In this document: positions 1,032 through 17,922 of the stretch, piece after piece
Layout: each line of letters begins with the position of its first letter
How positions within the stretch are numbered: the first letter of the stretch is position 1
Assembly: GCA_964497435.1 (NCBI GenBank)
Contig: CAZCCD010000001.1
Location: 29,914-61,913, forward strand
Origin: Candidatus Woesearchaeota archaeon
GTDB lineage: Archaea; Nanobdellota; Nanobdellia; Pacearchaeales; GW2011-AR1
Direction: 5' to 3'
Length of the DNA: 32,000 nucleotides
Translations under genes and position numbers: made by a program
Notes under the pieces: generated by a model
Database searches by the model: none
The model's input: the letters and a program-made list of their open reading frames with translations, nothing else
What the model was told of the DNA's origin: nothing

Positions 1032-1104
1032 TCGAATCAGTCAGAGGCAACGAAAAGATTCGGCGAGGTTGCTGGAGTTGTGAAGAACCCGCTGGAGGTT
1101 CTCA
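1032..1104 (-). repeat. hairpin-repeat element, copy A, abutting the stop codon of the 1017-aa gene
   Basis: Stem-loop agaacc-CGCTGGA-ggttct at 1084-1102 touches the stop codon at 1102-1104. It is preceded by GAGGTTGCTGGAGTTGTGA. A second stem pairs gcaac (1047-1051) with gttgc (1068-1072). The same module recurs at 4698-4735 and 16866-16903. Confidence 0.6.
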
Positions 1105-4100: not shown

Positions 4101-4155
4101 AGAAATACCCTTTCTTATTTTTGGTTTTGAAGCTATTTTTATTTTTTATTCCCAT
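1102..4155 (-). CDS. large pilin-anchored vWA (MIDAS) domain protein with inserted LamG/concanavalin-like beta-sandwich; putative filament-associated adhesin (TadG/PilY1-like logic)
   Basis: 1017 aa. N-terminus ...NKKG|YFFSLDALIALLLIIGVVLFI is pilin-like. vWA elements: DVISVTDLSGSMGG (DxSxS), GGYTCICCGI (MIDAS Thr), VAIVMTDGQAN (MIDAS Asp) and ITVHAVGFG. A ~200-aa beta-rich insert (NPTRWSVTEGNGRIRII...GNVSIF) lies between the TCICCGI and MTDG segments. There is an acidic DYDQDGDTTDD loop. The start overlaps the upstream gene by 10 nt. Confidence 0.75.
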   Translation of the reverse strand: MGIKNKNSFKTKNKKGYFFSLDALIALLLIIGVVLFIKPSQTQVSYDSRVHEDLLSVLSDLQIGEINNSYVKQLIANGDIKKLNQSVLEQIGEFYASSNPLANQLAQNILDSLALRDNTGLYFNDVLIASTGNTSFSNALTVLTSRQIISGIINGSSATGFSSRAFLTAENKIEYFYFGGYIGDGNITAEIEGEVISANIEGVFSRDFDLYINDIYASSHSPISNVPYKIDLNSNLSMFAIGKNTVEFKSTNGNLYIAGGYLKAVYNDVSNLSSYYKKKFPGIKGLINIYDSIYVPGTLNSMEVFLHYNSSFDIFMTIGNKSIYSGNSSGANLSVTIDNPTLSSILDYSSMNEKNIPIRLGIENVSGLGKDIKVDVISVTDLSGSMGGQKITDAKNANIELINGILNFSGNNVGLEGYRTWAEKSDFHALSNNSASLINEVNTWNAGGYTCICCGIIKAINCFDKNIFNDNFNDQTIGSNPTRWSVTEGNGRIRIISPGLEGNKAVNISRLSSQNPVMRHYFAPQEDKISVEFLVRHDSGTGRIVVYVEGANSGFSDFQNYIIIKMYDGWIRNNDAQVYSYTLNTNYKIKVEIFPGSNVYDLYVDDVLEGNDLSVYSTRTNIARVSFLTENSNVGYTAGNVSIFLTDEICNALPPENRSRVAIVMTDGQANRACGLDPVVDYDQDGDTTDDSQDHAIQAACDAKNKHNITVHAVGFGNGADTDTLEDISSCGQGNFYFGNVGELVSIYQQITQDIISTAFIEQTVIGKGIYTLLYSDSYISMDYDKVIPNGVSITTETAIFNNNISQGNFFVPLDAEPYEAGVVSYSGPRWTDMLQINSSGVWEDVFNLAEYNSNSYFELGDPYIVNIPGSKLKKGDNSVIVSTGAGPSNSSGGSIYDKVVYSIVKNISSYTPVVISADGCLWDIEFEDNTVGSISVPKNYTGSNRCYYNSSIPSFALFNNNDAIQISTYDLLKGLDLNLNGKIETKFTDQDLTINTIEITGIPFTWDTEVQARAWR

Positions 4156-4613
4156 ATGTAAAAATCAAATCTTGATGGTTTATTTTTGTAGATTGTTATT
4201 CCTGTTACTTGTATTAAGTTTTCTGTATTGCTTGAATTAACCATTCCTACATAACTCGCTGGTAGGCCATTTATCTCTAAATTTTCCATGACAAAATAAA
4301 AATTTCTAGTAACTCCTATTATTGTTTTTTCTGCGTTATAATTTGCCTGAAAAAAATCAAGCTTTGATTGATTAACCCTTCCTTCTGTTAATATTCCTGC
4401 ATCTCCCTCACTCAATATCTGTTCTACAGCAACATTTCCCTCGTAAAATAATTCATCAAGATGTTTTTGTGATTGAGAAGAATAATTAATTGCATAAATA
4501 TAGAGAGTTATTATTCCTGCCATGAAGATAACCCCTGCTATTATAATATCAAGCCCCCATCCCTGCCCATTTTTGTCTTTTTTTATGTTACACATTTTTT
4601 TATTTTTATTCAT
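4146..4613 (-). CDS. pilin-like membrane-anchored protein (shortened start)
   Basis: The track ORF 4146..4793 is trimmed to the ATG at 4613-4611: MNKNKKMCNIKKDKNGQGWGLDIIIAGVIFMAGIITLYIY... This is a basic N-terminus, then G|Q, then a hydrophobic helix. The longer version would translate a non-coding tandem repeat and overlap the upstream gene by 62 nt. Confidence 0.55.
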   Translation of the reverse strand: MNKNKKMCNIKKDKNGQGWGLDIIIAGVIFMAGIITLYIYAINYSSQSQKHLDELFYEGNVAVEQILSEGDAGILTEGRVNQSKLDFFQANYNAEKTIIGVTRNFYFVMENLEINGLPASYVGMVNSSNTENLIQVTGITIYKNKPSRFDFYIWE

Positions 4614-4735
4614 GGTTGCTGGATGCATTAAAACTGGTAGAGGTTTCCTATCTCTGGTTGCTGGATGCATTAAAACTGGTAGAGGTTTCCTATCTCTGGT
4701 TGCTGGATGCATAGAAACCCGCTGGAGGTTTCTAT
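4614..4735 (-). repeat. tandem array of the hairpin-repeat element (two identical 42-bp units plus one variant unit), copies B1-B3
   Basis: Units at 4614-4655 and 4656-4697 are identical (ggttgctggatgcattaaaactggtagaggtttcctatctct). The third unit at 4698-4735 keeps ggttgctggatgcat and carries a perfect 9-bp stem, atagaaacc-CGCTGGA-ggtttctat (4711-4735). That stem contains the TAG stop (4732-4734) of the upstream pilin gene. Confidence 0.85.
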
Positions 4736-5145
4736 TGATTAAGGTAAACTGTGTCATTTTCTTTTTTGATTGAGTTTGAACCTTTCTGTACATTACCTAT
4801 AATTTCTGGAACCCTATAAGCCATGCCATGTCTATCTGTGGAAACATATACAAGGCCCGATGAAATTTCTATATTATAATCATTTCCAAGAACTTTTAAA
4901 GGAACTTGGAATATTCTATTATAGCCGTTTGTTGCTCCTGAAGCTAAGCCAAGTTCGCTTTGAACATCTAGTGCAATGTTTTGAAGCAATATTCTTTCTT
5001 TTTCCTTCTCTTTTTCTAATTGATTCTCTTTTATAATTACGAAAAATGTTACAAATGCAAATAAAACAAATCCAAATATTATCACAAATTCAATAGCACT
5101 CTGACCTCGTGAAGATCTTTGATCTGATCTTTTTATTTTAAGCAT
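4732..5145 (-). CDS. type IV pilin-like protein, class III signal peptide (first gene of the - strand operon; candidate major pilin)
   Basis: 137 aa. The N-terminus MLKIKRSDQRSSRG|QSAIEFVIIFGFVLFAFVTFFVII matches the archaeal QxSxEF-type prepilin N-terminus. Confidence 0.75.
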   Translation of the reverse strand: MLKIKRSDQRSSRGQSAIEFVIIFGFVLFAFVTFFVIIKENQLEKEKEKERILLQNIALDVQSELGLASGATNGYNRIFQVPLKVLGNDYNIEISSGLVYVSTDRHGMAYRVPEIIGNVQKGSNSIKKENDTVYLNQ

Positions 5146-5710
5146 TACACACCTCTAATTTTACATATTTACAGCATCCTTTTTATAAATTATTTACTAT
5201 TATGATTAAGTTAAAGTATCTATATAAAATTAAGCTTTCTGTGATACTGTTAAGTTATCAAGACATATCTCAAATTTGTGATTTTCTAAATTGCTGTTCA
5301 CTTTCGTTCACAGATTTAACATTTTAATAAATTCACGACGAGCAAATGCGAGGAGTGCAAATTTTACATATAAATAAAAAGCAATCCTTAAGATTATTTA
5401 AATTAAAAGAAGAATATCATTTTAGGTTGACAGTATAGCCTTCTGTTAAGCCCGTTATATATCATGAAATACTTCTTAGTTTATATATTGACTATTAATT
5501 AATATTAAAGGATAAATTTATTATGATGTGTTTAAACTCCCTGATTTATCATTAAAAAATTTGATATTTAACTGTTAACTCTAACTCATAATAAACATTT
5601 AAATAATGGATGACTAATTATAACCCTAGATTATACTCACTTATCATTAATATCTCTTTTATAAACTAAATTAAAATAAGGGGTTTGTTTTATGTTTTCA
5701 CAAGATTTTC

Positions 5711-5777
5711 GTAGGAGTAGAACACCCGAAGATGCCCTATCAAATCCTTAAGGATCTGAACGGAAACCGCCTCCTAC
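5711..5777 (-). ncRNA. candidate structured small RNA, four-helix (cloverleaf-shaped but not tRNA)
   Basis: Minus-strand fold: GUAGGAG-[GCGG UUU CCGU]-[UCAGAUCC UUAA GGAUUUGA]-UA-[GGGCAUC UUCG GGUGUUC]-UA-CUCCUAC. Five positions that are A-C mismatches on the + strand are G.U pairs on the - strand. It is a relatively G+C-rich island in a very AT-rich 885-bp gap. Confidence 0.45.
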
Positions 5778-5797
5778 AAAAAATACAATAAAATGAA

Positions 5798-5806
5798 TTT
5801 TTTAAA
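5798..5806 (-). promoter_or_regulatory. TATA-box-like element upstream of the candidate ncRNA
   Basis: Minus-sense TTTAAAAAA ends 20 nt upstream of the first base of the closing stem (5777). This is the usual archaeal TATA-to-start geometry. Confidence 0.35.
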
Positions 5807-6030
5807 CTTATCTCTATTCAAGATGAGATTTTTAAAAGATTTATTTAATCTATATATTATACTTTTTATCAAAAACAATACATATGAGATATCTCTCTAA
5901 TTCTATCTCTTACTTTAACAGTTACCCAAGCTTTGTTTAAACTGAATATAACATAAAATTTATCAACATTAAGTTATTTAGTTTTGTGTATTATCAACCT
6001 TATTTTAATATTCGCGAAAGCGACAATTTT

Positions 6031-7890
6031 TTAAAAATTCCAGGTTTCAAGCAGTGTACCTGCAAATTCTTCTCCAGACGAAAGTATTACTATAGGATAA
6101 ATCTCGACCTTTATTATTGGTGCTACTAATCCAGATGTTGTTAAATCAAAATCATATTTAGTTACCTGCAATATTTCAGGGGCTGGTTTGTCAACAACAG
6201 CTGTATTTGATGAAGAATCAAAGAATACAAATCTTAAAAAATTGTAATTGTGTACAGATTGTGTCTTTTGTGTAAATTGATTTGCGATTGTTTGGTAGAT
6301 GTTTGTTAAATCTGTTACATCTCCATAAGGAGAAAAGGAGAAGTTTCCGCCTCCACAATTTGCAATTTCTTGCATAGTTACTTTATCTACGCCAGCACCT
6401 ACACCTATAGCATGGATTGTTAAATTTTGTATACTTGCATTTGCATCGCATGCAGCCTTAATTGCATCATCCCTACCTGTATCAGGAATTCCGTCGTTAT
6501 TTAAATCACCAGTAACACCCTGTAATGCACACCCTGTAACTGAATCTCCATCACTCATAACAATCATTACCCTTTGAGGGTTAGTTGATGGTGTTAGTTT
6601 ACTTGTGGCGTCATTAATTCCACAGCACATACAAGAAGAAGGTGTGTAGGCTTCCCATGAATCAATTTTGGAATTTAAAGTGCCTGAACCAGAATTATCG
6701 ACTAAATTATTTGAAGAAGTCGTGTCTATAGCATTTCTAAAGATTGAAAATCCAACCCTATTATTTGCCCCTGTAAAAATAGAACTAATCAATGCTTTGT
6801 TTGCAGTTTGTGCCGGCCTTATTTTATCTATCATTATTGAGGTTAAGACTGGCTGCGTATTACAGGTAGACTGACAACTGTTTATTGATGCTGTGGAAAC
6901 ACCTCCACACTCTCCAAGTGGCGGTGATGGTTCAGGAAGAGGGTTTGAATGAGGATCATTAATACCATCTATTAAAGTATTTTTGTGATGCCCCTGGCCA
7001 CCAACACTATTATTTACATCAATATACATGCTACTCACACTTACACTGGCAAGAGATGTATCAACACTACCTAATTCAATTTCAGAAAGCCACATACTTT
7101 CTGTATAATTAATATTTGGGTTGCTCAATTTTATCCACCCCATATTTTCCTGCTGCCAAAGTCTAATGCTTGTTGTTGAGACACTAGAAAAAGTGTAACT
7201 TGAATTTGATACATTATCATTAACAATATTGTGTGCGGCAATTGTTTGATAAGAACTTCCATCCCAGTATTGTATGTCAATTTGTTGAGAAACCATATAG
7301 TTTCCTCTGTAATTATTCCATCCCCACCAAATTGTCACATTATCAATATTTTGTGGAGTCGAAAAATCAAGTGTAGCCCAATGAGGTCCTTGATCATTAA
7401 AACCCCAATCACATGTCGTGAATTCTCCAGTGCAACTACCCCACGTGTAAGACATAAAATGTCTTCTCCAGATAGCGTTACCAGCAGAATTTAGTGAGGC
7501 TGTGCAACAAGTTTGATTAACAAAATTACATACAGACATACTTTCAGATAAATCCACAACACTCATTACATCGACTTGAGGACTCTGTCCTTGAATTTCT
7601 ATGCTTCCTTGAGTTATTATTTTCCCTGTTCTTTTTTGAATTGTTATACTCAAATTTAAATTATTGTTTTGATCGACTTCGGCATTAGTTATGTCAATAT
7701 TTTCTGCTAAAAGATATGCCTTTATAGCTGATTTTTCTGATTCTTTTTCTATAAATACTCTTACTAATGTCCAGATTATGGCTATGGCAACAATTGTAAG
7801 CAAGATTAATAATAATGTAGTTATTATTGTTGAAAGTCCTTTTTTGTTTTCTAATAAACAAATGTAATTAACTTTGCCCTCTTTTTTCAT
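6031..7890 (-). CDS. pilin-anchored adhesin paralogue 1: vWA/MIDAS domain interrupted by a discoidin (F5/8 type C)-like domain
   Basis: 619 aa. The N-terminus NKKG|LSTIITTLLLILLTIVAIAIIW is an archaellin/pilin-type N-terminus. MIDAS motif DVMSVVDLSESM. Insert: ...HWATLDFSTPQNIDNVTIWWGWNNYRGNYMVSQQIDIQYWDGSSYQTI...SIRLWQQ...WLSEIEL (discoidin-like pattern). The rest of the vWA domain follows: SSCMCCGIND, VMIVMSDGDS, LTIHAIGVG. There is a DLNNDGIPDTGRDD Ca-loop-like motif. Confidence 0.8.
   Translation of the reverse strand: MKKEGKVNYICLLENKKGLSTIITTLLLILLTIVAIAIIWTLVRVFIEKESEKSAIKAYLLAENIDITNAEVDQNNNLNLSITIQKRTGKIITQGSIEIQGQSPQVDVMSVVDLSESMSVCNFVNQTCCTASLNSAGNAIWRRHFMSYTWGSCTGEFTTCDWGFNDQGPHWATLDFSTPQNIDNVTIWWGWNNYRGNYMVSQQIDIQYWDGSSYQTIAAHNIVNDNVSNSSYTFSSVSTTSIRLWQQENMGWIKLSNPNINYTESMWLSEIELGSVDTSLASVSVSSMYIDVNNSVGGQGHHKNTLIDGINDPHSNPLPEPSPPLGECGGVSTASINSCQSTCNTQPVLTSIMIDKIRPAQTANKALISSIFTGANNRVGFSIFRNAIDTTSSNNLVDNSGSGTLNSKIDSWEAYTPSSCMCCGINDATSKLTPSTNPQRVMIVMSDGDSVTGCALQGVTGDLNNDGIPDTGRDDAIKAACDANASIQNLTIHAIGVGAGVDKVTMQEIANCGGGNFSFSPYGDVTDLTNIYQTIANQFTQKTQSVHNYNFLRFVFFDSSSNTAVVDKPAPEILQVTKYDFDLTTSGLVAPIIKVEIYPIVILSSGEEFAGTLLETWNF
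6089..6246 (-). repeat. 158-bp block 100% identical to 9419-9576 (3' coding end of the adhesin paralogues)
   Basis: Base-by-base comparison by eye. The flanks diverge immediately on both sides. The block encodes the shared C-terminal segment YNFLRFVFFDSSSNTAVVDKPAPEILQVTKYDFDLTTSGLVAPIIKVEIYPIV. Confidence 0.9.
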
Positions 7891-9351: not shown

Positions 9352-11037
9352 TTATTCTTCTTCAAATTCCCAGGTTTCAAGCAACGGTCCTGCAACTTCT
9401 CTTCCTGATGAGAGTATCACTATAGGATAAATCTCGACCTTTATTATTGGTGCTACTAATCCAGATGTTGTTAAATCAAAATCATATTTAGTTACCTGCA
9501 ATATTTCAGGGGCTGGTTTGTCAACAACAGCTGTATTTGATGAAGAATCAAAGAATACAAATCTTAAAAAATTGTATTTTTGTATTGTTTTTGATTGCTG
9601 TATTGATTGGCCTGCTATTGTTGTGTAGATGTTTGTTAAATTATCTATGCTTCCATTAGATGCGTAATAAGTTCCATTTCCGCAGTTTGCGATGGCTTGT
9701 AGAGTCGCAGCATCAGCAGTAGGTTCAATACCAACACTATGGATTGTTAAATTCTGTATACTTGCATTACAAGCTGCATTAATGGCCTGTTGCGCAGGAG
9801 TTCCAGCCCCACCACAACCAAAATTTGCCAACCCATCACTCATAACAATCATTACTTTTTGTTTGTTTAACACTGAGTTATTTCCAAATTCAGCCGAGGC
9901 ATTGTTTATCCCACAACAAATGCAAGTTGCTCCCCAAGCCTCCCAACTATCTATTTTTGAGACTAGAATTCCAGAATTTGTAACTAAACCACTTGAATTA
10001 GAAGAATCTAAAGAACCCCTATATGCTGATAAACCAACTTTATTATTACTCCCAGTGAAAATTTCACTAACTAAGGCTTTATTTGCATTTATAAGAGGGT
10101 TAATTCTATCAATAAGATTCCCTCCACAGATAGGTTCACAATTGTTTAATGATGTTTTAGGTACTTCAGTACAATCGTAAGGAGGAGTAGTTGTTGCGTT
10201 GTTTAACTGGATTTCACTAATCCACATTATGTTTGGATAACTGGGAGGTCCCATTCCTGATTGTTGTACAAACCTTAAAGCTTGTGTTGAAAATTGTGGA
10301 AGAATGATTGTAGAATTTGATATGTTTTGAGCTCCGCCGCTGTTGAAAGTGACTAATGGCTGGAATACATATCCTGCATCTGCGTATTGAATCTCAACCT
10401 GTTGTGAAGTCATATATCTTGAAGTAGTTGCGTTCCAACCCCACCAAATTGTTATATTACTTACAGTTACTTGACCTACTATAAAGTCCATCGTAATCCT
10501 ATGGGGGAAAGGGCCTGTACTAGAACTTGCCCAGGAATTTGTCGTATTAATTATTCCGTCGACTAAATCACTTTCACTCCCAATGCTTGTGCTCCTAACA
10601 GTAACTTGTGCAAAAGGATCCATGCCTTCATTATACAAAAAAGCGCAACAATCTAAAGTTATATCTTCACAAACAGCCATGCTTCCGCTTAAATCCACAA
10701 CACTCATTACATCGACTTGAGGACTCTGGCCTTGTATCTCTATACTTCCTTCAGTTATTATTTTCCCTGTTTTCTTTTGGAGTGTTATGCTTAGACTTAG
10801 ATTATTGCTTTGGTTTATTTCGTCATCTATCACTTCAATGTTTTCACCTATTAAAGACGCTTTTATCGCCGATATTTCAGAATCCCTTTCTAAAATCAAT
10901 CTGACAATAATCCATATAATTGCAATTAAGACTATAGCAATTAAAATAATTAAAAGTGTTGTTATTATTGTTGAAAGGCCTTTTTTCTTTCTACAAATTG
11001 GAGAAACAACTAAACTAACACCTCTTTCTTTTTCCAT
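9352..11037 (-). CDS. pilin-anchored adhesin paralogue 2: vWA/MIDAS domain interrupted by a discoidin (F5/8 type C)-like domain
   Basis: 561 aa. N-terminus RKKKG|LSTIITTLLIILIAIVLIAIIW. MIDAS motif DVMSVVDLSGSM. Insert: HRITMDFIVGQVTVSNITIWWGWNATTSRYMTSQQVEIQY...ALRFVQQ...WISEIQL. Then ATCICCGINN, VMIVMSDGLAN, LTIHSVGIE. The C-terminus is identical to paralogue 1. Confidence 0.8.
   Translation of the reverse strand: MEKERGVSLVVSPICRKKKGLSTIITTLLIILIAIVLIAIIWIIVRLILERDSEISAIKASLIGENIEVIDDEINQSNNLSLSITLQKKTGKIITEGSIEIQGQSPQVDVMSVVDLSGSMAVCEDITLDCCAFLYNEGMDPFAQVTVRSTSIGSESDLVDGIINTTNSWASSSTGPFPHRITMDFIVGQVTVSNITIWWGWNATTSRYMTSQQVEIQYADAGYVFQPLVTFNSGGAQNISNSTIILPQFSTQALRFVQQSGMGPPSYPNIMWISEIQLNNATTTPPYDCTEVPKTSLNNCEPICGGNLIDRINPLINANKALVSEIFTGSNNKVGLSAYRGSLDSSNSSGLVTNSGILVSKIDSWEAWGATCICCGINNASAEFGNNSVLNKQKVMIVMSDGLANFGCGGAGTPAQQAINAACNASIQNLTIHSVGIEPTADAATLQAIANCGNGTYYASNGSIDNLTNIYTTIAGQSIQQSKTIQKYNFLRFVFFDSSSNTAVVDKPAPEILQVTKYDFDLTTSGLVAPIIKVEIYPIVILSSGREVAGPLLETWEFEEE
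9419..9576 (-). repeat. 158-bp block 100% identical to 6089-6246
   Basis: See 6089-6246. A second identical run of 39 bp (10690-10728 = 7549-7587) covers the MIDAS-encoding segment. Confidence 0.9.
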
Positions 11038-16706: not shown

Positions 16707-16713
16707 AAAAAAA
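16707..16713 (-). terminator. oligo-T terminator of tRNA-Gly
   Basis: Seven consecutive T on the - strand directly follow discriminator base A73 (16714). Confidence 0.5.
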
Positions 16714-17000
16714 TGCGCGGACCGGGAGTTGAACCCGGCTCACCTCGTGTTTGCTTTTTGTTGTTAATTTATTAATTGGAGCTTTGATTCCTTACATTGT
16801 CCTTCTCTATAAAAGGAGGGGTTGTGCGAGCAATTTCATGAGACAAATCGCTCGGAACTCACAACGAGTGAGGTTGCGAGTTAGGAAGAACCGTAGGTTC
16901 TCTATCAGCCTTGAGCACTATCTTAAGGGAGATGGTGTGAGGAAGAACCGTAGGTTCTTCTCATTGGCAACGAGATATTCTACCGATAAACTACCCGCGC
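16714..17000 (-). tRNA. tRNA-Gly(GCC) interrupted by a ~215-nt intervening sequence at a non-canonical site after the anticodon arm (approx. 16744-16958)
   Basis: 5' part on the - strand (17000-16959): GCGCGGG-TA-GTTT-ATCGGTA-GAAT-A-TCTCG-TTGCCAA-TGAGA. 3' part (16743-16714): GTGAG-CCGGG-TTCAACT-CCCGG-TCCGCGC-A. All four stems pair and the anticodon loop is intact. The junction is placed only to within a few nt. Confidence 0.7.
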
Positions 17001-17023
17001 ATAAAAAAACTAGAATGAATCAT

Positions 17024-17033
17024 TATTTAAAGA
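17024..17033 (-). promoter_or_regulatory. TATA-box-like element upstream of tRNA-Gly
   Basis: Minus-sense CTTTAAATAA lies 24-33 nt upstream of G1 (17000). Confidence 0.4.
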
Positions 17034-17061
17034 TTGTTAAATTAAAAATAAGAGGTGAAAA

Positions 17062-17922
17062 ATGTTAAATCTTATTATTCCTGTTGTAGCTGCTTTTTTT
17101 GCAGGCATTGCAACAACGCTTGAAAAATTTGTTTTAAGAGTGAGGAAAATTGACTTTAGATTTTACCAGGTTTTGTCTTTTCTAGCAATCAGCCTTGTAA
17201 TGTTGCCATTTATTCTTTTTTTCTTTAAAATGGATTTTCAGGCTTTAGAAATTAAAAATATAATTATTTTTTTGTTAGTTGTTATTTTTTCAATATTGGC
17301 TAACTTCTTTGTCTTTTATTCTATGAAATGGGAGAAAATCACTAATTTAGAACCAGCAAAGCTTTTAGAACCACTCCTCACAATTATCTTAGCAATTATT
17401 TTCAGTTTTATTTTTGGTCAGGCTCTTTATGAAAGAAGCACAAGAGTTGTTATACCTGCATTGATTGCTGGCTCTGCCTTGATTTTTTCTCATTTAAAAA
17501 AACATCATCTTGAATTTAATAGATATTTTTTGGCTATGATTCTGGGGAGTTTCTTCTTTGCCCTAGAGTTAGTAATAACAAGGTTAATTCTTGATTATTA
17601 CTCTCCACTAAGTTTCTATTTTTTAAGGAGTTCAATGATTTTTCTTTTTAGTCTTATTATCTTTAGGCCTAAATTTAAAAAATTAGGAAAAAAAATAACA
17701 TTTGAAATTTTTCTAGCTGGTGCAATTTGGGTTGGATACAGAGTTCTCCTTTATTATGGTTATTTGAATTTAGGAGTCATATATACTACTTTATTAGTTC
17801 TGCTTGGGCCTGTATTCATCTACTTGTTTGCCTGGAAATTTTTGAAGGAAAAATTAGAATTCAGAAATGTTATAGCAGCAATAATTATAATTGCATGTAT
17901 TCTTTATGTTATTATTTCATAA
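17062..17922 (+). CDS. EamA/DMT-superfamily transporter
   Basis: 286 aa, about 10 hydrophobic helices in two similar halves. A strong SD (AAGAGGTGA) lies 5 nt upstream of the ATG. Confidence 0.6.
   Translation: MLNLIIPVVAAFFAGIATTLEKFVLRVRKIDFRFYQVLSFLAISLVMLPFILFFFKMDFQALEIKNIIIFLLVVIFSILANFFVFYSMKWEKITNLEPAKLLEPLLTIILAIIFSFIFGQALYERSTRVVIPALIAGSALIFSHLKKHHLEFNRYFLAMILGSFFFALELVITRLILDYYSPLSFYFLRSSMIFLFSLIIFRPKFKKLGKKITFEIFLAGAIWVGYRVLLYYGYLNLGVIYTTLLVLLGPVFIYLFAWKFLKEKLEFRNVIAAIIIIACILYVIIS

Follow-up and report, generated by a model that had tools for sequence, protein, structure and literature searches.

A conserved four-way-junction RNA encoded beside a type IV pilus-like locus in DPANN archaea

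We analysed a 32,000-nucleotide stretch of DNA (here called the window; GC content, ~32%) that encodes an archaeal type IV pilus-like locus. The locus includes pilin-like proteins with class III signal peptides, some of them fused to VWA domains, together with a T2SSE/FlaI-type ATPase, two T2SSF proteins and a KaiC-like ATPase; a thermosome is encoded in the window as well. The best full-length relatives of the pilus ATPase are only 63 to 66% identical to it and come from MAGs labelled Nanoarchaeota, Candidatus Nanoarchaeia or Pacearchaeota, which indicates that the host is a DPANN archaeon without a close sequenced relative. Archaea of the DPANN group are very small episymbionts that have not been cultured, and their non-coding RNAs have hardly been explored.

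On the minus strand, an operon begins with an ATG at 5145 and encodes p137 (pilin-like), p215, a giant VWA/laminin-G protein and an LMW phosphatase. Upstream of it lies a gap, 5146-6030, that had been described as gene-free. This description holds: the gap contains no ORF longer than 47 aa, and tblastx and tblastn found no similarity between it and the related loci fetched or the rest of the window. On the side of the RNA described below that faces away from p137, a lineage-specific gene for a 619-aa pilin-VWA protein has been inserted. An exact look-up of the downstream protein returned no record.

The part of the gap that lies nearer to p137 holds a further non-coding element. A block of ~208 bp (5237-5444) is 74% identical to positions 1296-1504 of a related contig, L020 (E 2.5e-25; nhmmer E ~1e-58). 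In both sequences the block sits between the RNA gene and p137, and its orientation relative to both of these is opposite in the two. An imperfect inverted repeat of 29 nt (5200-5228 and 5480-5508) flanks it in the window. The block shows no conserved ORF and no convincing conserved fold; it may be an invertible switch, or else a regulatory module whose orientation changed a single time in evolution.

An earlier reading of this DNA (the original prediction) had placed a minus-strand four-helix junction at 5711-5777, and RNAfold reproduces that structure exactly, including the 7-bp closing stem. The minus strand folds into a closed four-way junction with a minimum free energy of -30.5 kcal/mol, which accounts for 61% of the ensemble (Table 1). 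The arms had been given as 4, 8 and 7 bp; the first two lengths stand, and the UUCG-capped arm has 9 bp rather than 7 (UAGGGCAUC/GGUGUUCUA). The five predicted G.U pairs can all be counted in the sequence (G8.U18, G22.U35, G42.U57, G43.U56 and U46.G53, where RNA position i is window coordinate 5778 - i). Dinucleotide shuffling, the folding-energy control that had been proposed for the structure, gives z = -5.28 with 0 of 200 shuffles equally stable, and 12 homologues give z scores from -3.4 to -7.3. The plus strand of the same segment reaches only -15 kcal/mol (z = -1.85). When all 70-nt windows on both strands of the 32 kb were ranked by stability (6,400 windows scanned), this segment came first, both by raw energy and after correction for GC content. 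The RNA has a GC content of 50% against 21% in its flanks.

Table 1. Features of the RNA gene and of the downstream operon promoter. Read in the order closing stem 5' strand, arm 1, arm 2, arm 3, closing stem 3' strand, the segments give the minus-strand sequence of the RNA.
Feature	Position in window	Strand	Remarks
RNA core	5711..5777	-	67 nt, closed four-way junction; family model R2, 73.3 bits, E ~1e-20; folding z score; covariation
Closing stem, 5' strand, GUAGGAG	5771..5777	-	7 bp; G1-U2-A3-G4 and G7 invariant; positions 5 and 6 covary with their partners
Arm 1, GCGG-UUU-CCGU	5760..5770	-	4 bp in window copy; first two pairs (G.U, C-G) invariant
Arm 2, UCAGAUCC-UUAA-GGAUUUGA	5740..5759	-	8 bp and tetraloop; loop variable across family
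Arm 3, UAGGGCAUC-UUCG-GGUGUUCUA	5718..5739	-	9 bp and UUCG loop; 22 nt in 20/20 homologues
Closing stem, 3' strand, CUCCUAC	5711..5717	-	terminal CUAC invariant
TATA box of RNA gene, TTTAAAAAA	5798..5806	-	starts 29 bp upstream of G1; preceded by A-rich BRE-like stretch
First T4 run, putative archaeal oligo-T terminator	5673..5676	-	35 nt downstream of RNA
TATA box of pilin operon, TTTATAAAAA	5180..5189	-	context, outside RNA; ~44 nt upstream of ATG at 5145
Shine-Dalgarno of pilin operon, GAGGTG	5155-5150	-	from sequence

Because the flanking 619-aa protein has almost no homologues in a homologue search, we used the conserved pilus ATPase to find syntenic loci. Contigs with related ATPases are syntenic to the window across ~20 kb. 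With only the window sequence and its fold as input, a covariance model (R1) gave one match each, at 50 to 57 bits (E ~1e-15 to 1e-17), in syntenic relatives L001, L002-L004, L005, L010 and L011/L012, and every match lies at the equivalent intergenic spot on the equivalent strand. A degenerate pattern derived from these matches was scanned in GTDB genomes and metagenomes. The metagenomes yielded 18 contigs, from Hainich groundwater and several JGI samples, and 17 of the 18 carry a strong model match; L031 matches the pattern doubtfully and fails to form the junction, and it was left out. In the GTDB genomes there was one archaeal match ('Nanoarchaeota archaeon H41-bin116_1') and three bacterial ones. 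We regard the bacterial matches as chance, given family-model scores of at most 18 bits (none at all for L009) against 60 to 86 bits for true copies. The family model (R2) found the RNA in two more syntenic MAGs, L033 (Candidatus Pacearchaeota, GCA_016181885.1) and L034 (GCA_964361515.1). After removal of duplicates, synteny, covariance model and pattern scan together gave 20 distinct homologues. Conservation among relatives, one of the checks proposed for the RNA, is thus clear, with the RNA at the same genomic spot in all 20.

The RNA is single-copy in the window and in every locus examined, and a model search of the window with filters off found no second copy. An apparent second copy in L034 proved to be an artefact of a scaffold gap of Ns. 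Viral contigs gave no match to the exact or family patterns. Four related lineages (L013/L014, L035, L036 and the P0104 contig) have no copy within 10 kb on either side of the locus; no hidden copies appeared in these relatives when filters were off, and on the P0104 contig the intergenic space is just 70 nt. On present evidence, the family is restricted to one DPANN clade (Nanoarchaeota/Pacearchaeota-like).

Do the homologues share the fold? In a MAFFT alignment of the 20 sequences, which uses sequence only and is fitted to no structure, 96.7% of the cells in the 31 pairs form standard pairs, versus 38 to 52% when partners are slid by 1 to 3 columns. Both sides of the pair change in 20 of the 31 pairs, and 0 of 500 shuffles reach the observed value on any of five pairing measures; the covariation analysis by which the prediction was to be judged therefore supports it. 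At some positions, the pattern used for the metagenome scan accounts for part of the conservation. Since the scan could bias which columns look invariant, we repeated the test on the eight sequences found from synteny alone. These give pairing in 95.9% of cells and double changes in 19 pairs, RNAalifold predicts the same 31 pairs from them unaided, and the invariant positions are the same as in the full set.

Folded individually, each of the 20 sequences gives the same four-helix architecture, and 19 of the 20 minimum-free-energy folds have zero unpaired nucleotides at the junction. The RNA is 66 to 77 nt long; a typical member has 74 nt, with a 7-bp closing stem and tetraloop-capped arms of 7, 8 and 9 bp. 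The closing stem has 7 bp in 20/20 copies and arm 3 is equally fixed (9 bp plus 4 nt), while arm 2 mostly has 7 to 8 bp and arm 1 ranges from 4 to 8 bp. In the window copy arm 1 is shortened, with 4 bp and a UUU loop instead of the usual 7 bp and UNCG-type tetraloop. The loops vary freely (UUCG, UCCG, CUCG, UUAG, UUAA, GCAA and others); they are 3 to 6 nt in size and mostly tetraloops, and that of arm 2 alone occurs as UUAA, GCAA, UUAU, GUAG and other variants. Some members (L002, L005 and L019) have a 2x2 internal mismatch in arm 2.

Sequence conservation is concentrated in two places. The outer four base pairs of the closing stem, G1 U2 A3 G4 with the CUAC of the 3' end, are invariant, and so are the pairs that line the junction, namely G7-C, G8.U, C9-G and the first U-A pair of arm 2 and of arm 3. 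A C-G pair near the top of arm 3 is also invariant, and its neighbour is mostly A-U. Because the four pairs closing the junction are the same in every copy, their pairing cannot be demonstrated by covariation; up to six conserved nucleotides there might instead be unpaired and form a ligand pocket.

The strand of the transcript can be read from the same data. About 15% of the paired cells in the alignment are G.U, the invariant G8.U among them, and the family model scores 73 to 86 bits on the minus strand versus 24 to 28 bits on the plus strand. The structure thus belongs to a minus-strand transcript and not to duplex DNA, as the original prediction had argued when it preferred an RNA to a DNA palindrome.

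The RNA also appears to have its own promoter. A TATA box, TTTAAAAAA, had been noted 20 nt before the first stem base, and it does lie at 5806-5798, 20 nt from G5777. That it belongs to the RNA is borne out by the homologues: the TATA box starts exactly at -29 from G1 in 19 of the 20 and at -30 in the remaining one, and the motifs (TTTAAAAA, TTTAAATA and similar) follow an A-rich BRE-like stretch. The tRNA genes of these genomes have a similar layout: counted from the mature 5' end, their TATA boxes begin at about -30 to -33, and the RNA gene is thus organised in the manner of the tRNA genes around it. Since the centre of an archaeal TATA box lies ~26 bp before the start site, a box at -29 predicts initiation at G1 or within 1 to 2 nt of it.

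At the other end, a T-rich tract had been noted ~40 nt downstream, and the first T4 run follows 35 nt past the RNA, at 5676-5673. If it acts as a terminator, it would yield a primary transcript of ~100 to 105 nt. Across the family, a T4 or T5 run occurs 2 to 35 nt past the 3' end in 17 of the 20 copies, and 3 have no T4 within 50 nt. An independent archaeal RNA gene should have a BRE/TATA element at the canonical distance and an oligo-T run after the RNA, and both are found here. It had also been suggested that the junction might be one domain of a longer RNA; this idea finds no support, as conservation stops at the four-way junction and, downstream, resumes only with the promoter of the following operon. 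The 3' tail of the RNA (5693-5681) is complementary over 13 nt to the coding region of p137 (5061-5073), a match that we set aside because the tail is not conserved in the family.

Rfam 15 (4227 models) gave no match in the window at gathering thresholds and, at E <= 10, none in 5100-6100 and none on the RNA of 9 homologous loci; its models include those for twister-sister, the hairpin ribozyme, riboswitches, C/D and H/ACA sRNAs, Hgc RNAs, SRP RNA and RNase P RNA. A literature search found no description of the RNA. The original prediction could assign it to no known family and had proposed an Rfam search as the check; the searches bear this out, and the RNA is a new family without a match in Rfam or the literature. 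We are highly confident that the minus strand of 5711-5777 is a real, selected, structured RNA gene.

What might such an RNA do? Tentatively, we favour a stand-alone, trans-acting architectural RNA that would be recognised by a protein at its junction and helix end and would serve as a scaffold or decoy. RNA polymerase would start at G1 or within 1 to 2 nt, directed by the BRE/TATA element 29 bp upstream, and the 66- to 77-nt RNA would fold into four helices, with the 7-bp closing stem and three arms bearing interchangeable stable tetraloops. Transcription would stop at an oligo-T a short, variable distance downstream, and the tail would presumably be trimmed. The invariant, blunt helix end would then carry the primary 5' end, and the protein partner would read the rigid shape that selection maintains, made up of the invariant parts, the tetraloop caps and the constant lengths of three helices (closing stem, arm 2, arm 3). 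We infer transcription, the transcript ends, action in trans and the protein partner alike. Base-pairing to targets is unlikely because the RNA has no conserved single-stranded stretch and its loops vary; in an antisense sRNA one would look for conserved unpaired nucleotides, and here these are the variable loop caps and a 3' tail that is not conserved.

The genomic setting bears directly on whether the RNA acts in trans. In every locus with enough flank, it lies upstream of the p137 operon on the same strand, and a divergent gene, p218, is usually back-to-back with it. Such a constant place could equally mean a role in cis. However, the operon has its own promoter and Shine-Dalgarno sequence: motif AATTTTATATAT, the operon TATA, precedes the orthologous gene in relatives, RNA-less lineages included, and the GAGGTG is likewise present in those lineages. 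The distance from the RNA to the ATG varies from ~60 to 570 nt (566 nt in the window). Lineage-specific genes have been inserted on either side of the RNA in several genomes; in L001 an extra gene and in L034 an antisense ORF separates RNA and operon, and the RNA is intact in both. Together, these observations point to an independent, trans-acting gene, whose fixed position we read as part of the general synteny of the region. The four lineages that have no RNA at the locus suggest that it is dispensable for the pilus system as such. Orthologues of p137 are only 44 to 55% identical, and the RNA is far better conserved than its protein neighbours.

The alternative that fares best, though we still think it unlikely, is that the RNA is a cis-acting element of the pilin operon, with transcripts from the RNA promoter reading through weak oligo-T signals. 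It could then be a 5' stabiliser, a processing signal or a riboswitch-like sensor with a junction pocket that tunes read-through or promoter interference. Its unvarying place ahead of the p137-p215-VWA operon is what such an element would show, and in many relatives the two units stand in tandem, with the operon TATA beginning just 5 to 30 nt past the 3' end of the RNA. The three copies that have no nearby T4 run fit with read-through, and sequence conservation centred on the junction and closing helix would suit a sensor. However, the promoter and Shine-Dalgarno sequence of the operon are conserved in their own right, four lineages have the operon without the RNA, and the intervening spacer is AT-rich, variable in length, full of T runs and, in L001, interrupted by a gene. 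No expression platform or alternative pairing is conserved, and 19 of the 20 folds predict no unpaired conserved nucleotides.

A more ambitious proposal, and a decidedly improbable one in our estimation, makes the four-way junction a sensor or regulatory RNA for the DPANN adhesion (type IV-like) pilus. The junction would bind a ligand or a protein of the pilus system and would set pilin expression, either through its tandem position or in trans, possibly together with the ~208-bp block. If this were true, host attachment in episymbiotic archaea would be under the control of a tRNA-shaped RNA that lacks an anticodon.

The resemblance to tRNA raises another possibility. The four-way junction of the RNA is closed by 7 bp, as by an acceptor stem, and carries three hairpin arms; members typically measure 74 nt, and the gene, like those of the neighbouring tRNA-Val and tRNA-Gly, has a BRE/TATA aimed at or near the first stem base and T runs after it. 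The RNA could thus be a tRNA-derived, anticodon-less mimic that is handled by tRNA-binding enzymes (end-processing, CCA-adding or modification) or acts as a decoy for them, or else a tRNA-like integration target, for which the lineage-specific gene insertions on both sides in several genomes might speak. The invariant G.U and C-G pairs at the base of arm 1 resemble G10-Y25 and Y11-R24 of the tRNA D-stem, which we take as a lead only. However, the likeness is one of outline and gene layout. The RNA has no connector nucleotides 8, 9 and 26, no variable region and no anticodon, T or D loops; in place of 7-nt anticodon and T loops it has variable tetraloop-type caps, its arms have 7, 8 and 9 bp versus 4, 5 and 5 bp in tRNA, the T-loop and D-loop consensus nucleotides are absent, and CCA is not encoded. 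ARAGORN finds the neighbouring tRNA-Val and tRNA-Gly but calls nothing at this site, neither in the window nor in 9 related loci, and the Rfam tRNA and tRNA-like models have no match at E <= 10. The original prediction had likewise ruled out a tRNA, and without tRNA loops or connectors the RNA is not one. tRNA end-processing enzymes measure 12 bp, and the closing stem stacked on arm 3 would present 16 bp, not 12. We therefore consider the mimic quite unlikely.

Least probable by far is a DNA-level element (a cruciform, a recombination site or a cluster of protein-binding palindromes): each arm is a DNA palindrome, the setting is a promoter-rich divergent intergenic region and the neighbouring ~208-bp block is inverted relative to another genome, but the G.U cells, the invariant one included, would be A-C mismatches on the other strand, the model scores strongly on one strand only, free covariation of the stems would destroy a fixed protein-binding site, and the promoter, whose distance is constant, points at the base where the first stem starts.

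The family is cleanly defined by its promoter, a predicted exact 5' end, a covariation-backed fold and its phylogenetic range, and it can be synthesised and tested directly. It would provide a handle on a putative RNA-protein interaction in reduced genomes and a marker gene for one DPANN clade, and it may offer a lead into the control of the pili that are thought to attach these organisms to their hosts. Its design is unusual: four capped helices surround an invariant junction, in a gene built like that of a tRNA minus every tRNA loop.

How does this design compare with known structured RNAs? Self-cleaving ribozymes such as hairpin and twister-sister depend on conserved unpaired catalytic nucleotides, placed at the junction or in internal loops, and we found none in the family, whose helices are continuous. 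The sole recurrent internal mismatch, that in arm 2, is not conserved. With no conserved internal loops predicted, the fold argues against a ribozyme.

Riboswitch aptamers are a further comparison. NiCo/czcD and the Mn2+ yybP element are four-way-junction aptamers, and in four-way-junction riboswitches such as NiCo conservation is centred on the junction and closing helix. The yjdF riboswitch has a tRNA-like fold (PMC9142559). Like these, the present RNA is compact, has four helices, lies upstream of an operon and is conserved around its junction. However, the known aptamers are bacterial, have conserved unpaired nucleotides in their junctions or loops, carry an expression platform and lie within an mRNA leader, whereas here a separate promoter for the operon follows the RNA ahead of the ATG, the spacing varies, nothing is conserved past the closing stem and Rfam gives no match. 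In a riboswitch reading, the only part that could form a pocket is the invariant junction, the pairing of which is itself unproven.

In genomic character, the RNA resembles the high-GC small RNAs (Hgc RNAs) of AT-rich archaea, reportedly found as GC islands by Klein, Misulovin and Eddy in 2002. The present RNA is also a GC-rich island in an AT-rich archaeal genome and a stand-alone gene. It differs in that neither its sequence nor its structure matches the Rfam Hgc families and in that its host is a mesophilic groundwater DPANN archaeon, not a hyperthermophile.

Among tRNA-like elements, mascRNA/menRNA, the tRNA-like element upstream of the Haloferax 5S rRNA and the plant mitochondrial t-elements share with the RNA a small, non-decoding cloverleaf that adjoins another transcription unit. 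In these elements the loops remain tRNA-like, and a longer precursor is cut by RNase P or tRNase Z to release them. In contrast, the present RNA is served by a promoter of its own that points at the first base, it lacks the loop features of tRNA, and it gives no match to the mascRNA-type models of Rfam.

In topology, the RNA resembles the 4H junctions, in which four helices meet fully paired. Examples are the natural hairpin ribozyme, U1 snRNA, HCV IRES domain IIIabc and coronavirus SL5 (PMC10927501). Several of these also have UUCG-type arm caps. If the present RNA has no unpaired junction nucleotides, as its folds predict, this implies two coaxial stacks. Each of those known junctions sits within a larger RNA, and it is the internal or apical loops that carry the function. 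In contrast, the present RNA consists of the junction and its capped helices alone, and it is conserved only at the junction and the helix end.

The window and L020, one of the loci from related DPANN archaea and metagenome contigs, share a conserved non-coding block of about 208 bp, placed in each case between the gene for the four-way-junction RNA and the pilin gene. The orientation of the block is opposite in the two loci, and in the window it is bracketed by an imperfect inverted repeat. The block may have flipped during evolution, or it may be a regulatory switch that can invert. We found no conserved open reading frame (ORF) or fold in it. A separate inverted repeat overlaps the TATA box of the RNA gene, and it may be a mere reflection of AT-rich promoter sequence.

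The pilus locus is otherwise conserved, with two paralogous genes as insertions, each encoding a pilin N-terminus and a von Willebrand factor A (VWA) domain. The two proteins are 48% identical to one another and have almost no homologs elsewhere. One of the genes stands between the RNA gene and p218, its usual divergent neighbor. In a further related locus, L034 (GCA_964361515.1), 3′-half sequence of the RNA is duplicated on the flanks of a run of Ns (7051-7150); we rejected a second RNA gene copy there and attribute the duplication to a scaffolding artifact of the public assembly.

Features in the window and in related loci
Feature	Locus	Position	Strand	Details
Inverted repeat at TATA box	Window	5788-5806 / 5831-5849		19 nt, AT-rich, 84% complementary
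Tandem repeat	Window	4613-4712		42 bp, perfect, 2.4 copies
Listed p215 ORF	Window	4146-4793		215 aa
GC-rich hairpins at stop codons	Window	1082-1102; 4715-4735	-	
Hairpins in tRNA-Gly intron	Window	16885-16901; 16942-16958		
Further GC-rich hairpin site	L034	19571-19585		
Conserved non-coding block	Window; L020	5237-5444; 1296-1504		~208 bp, 74% identity
Imperfect inverted repeat around block	Window	5200-5228; 5480-5508		29 nt
Pilin-VWA paralogs	Window	6031-7890; 9352-11037	-	
tRNA-Gly(GCC) gene	Window	16713-17001	-	216-nt intron
ORF opposite tRNA-Gly(GCC)	Window	16751-17068	+	105 aa

Within the pilin operon, the start of p215 likely lies inside the listed ORF, downstream of a tandem repeat array that follows the stop codon of the pilin-like p137. 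The array gives rise to the MHPATRDRKPLPVL repeats at the N-terminus of the listed protein, and alignments with p215 orthologs begin only at about residue 62.

The window also holds a tRNA-Gly(GCC) gene, overlooked by ARAGORN at default settings, with an intron at the canonical position 37/38. At the same spot in relatives, between the KaiC and EamA genes, tRNA-Gly(GCC) has no intron. We regard the ORF on the other strand as probably spurious.

The stop codons of the giant VWA gene and p137 each overlap a GC-rich hairpin, (A/G)AACC-UCCAGCG-GGUU(C/U), and these two sites share an identical 15-mer (chance expectation, 0.02). Two copies of a related hairpin, GAAGAACC-GUA-GGUUCU, lie within the tRNA-Gly intron, and this hairpin recurs in another related locus (L011), just upstream of tRNA-Gly. 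These recurring elements may represent a family of 3′-end, processing or protein-binding hairpins.
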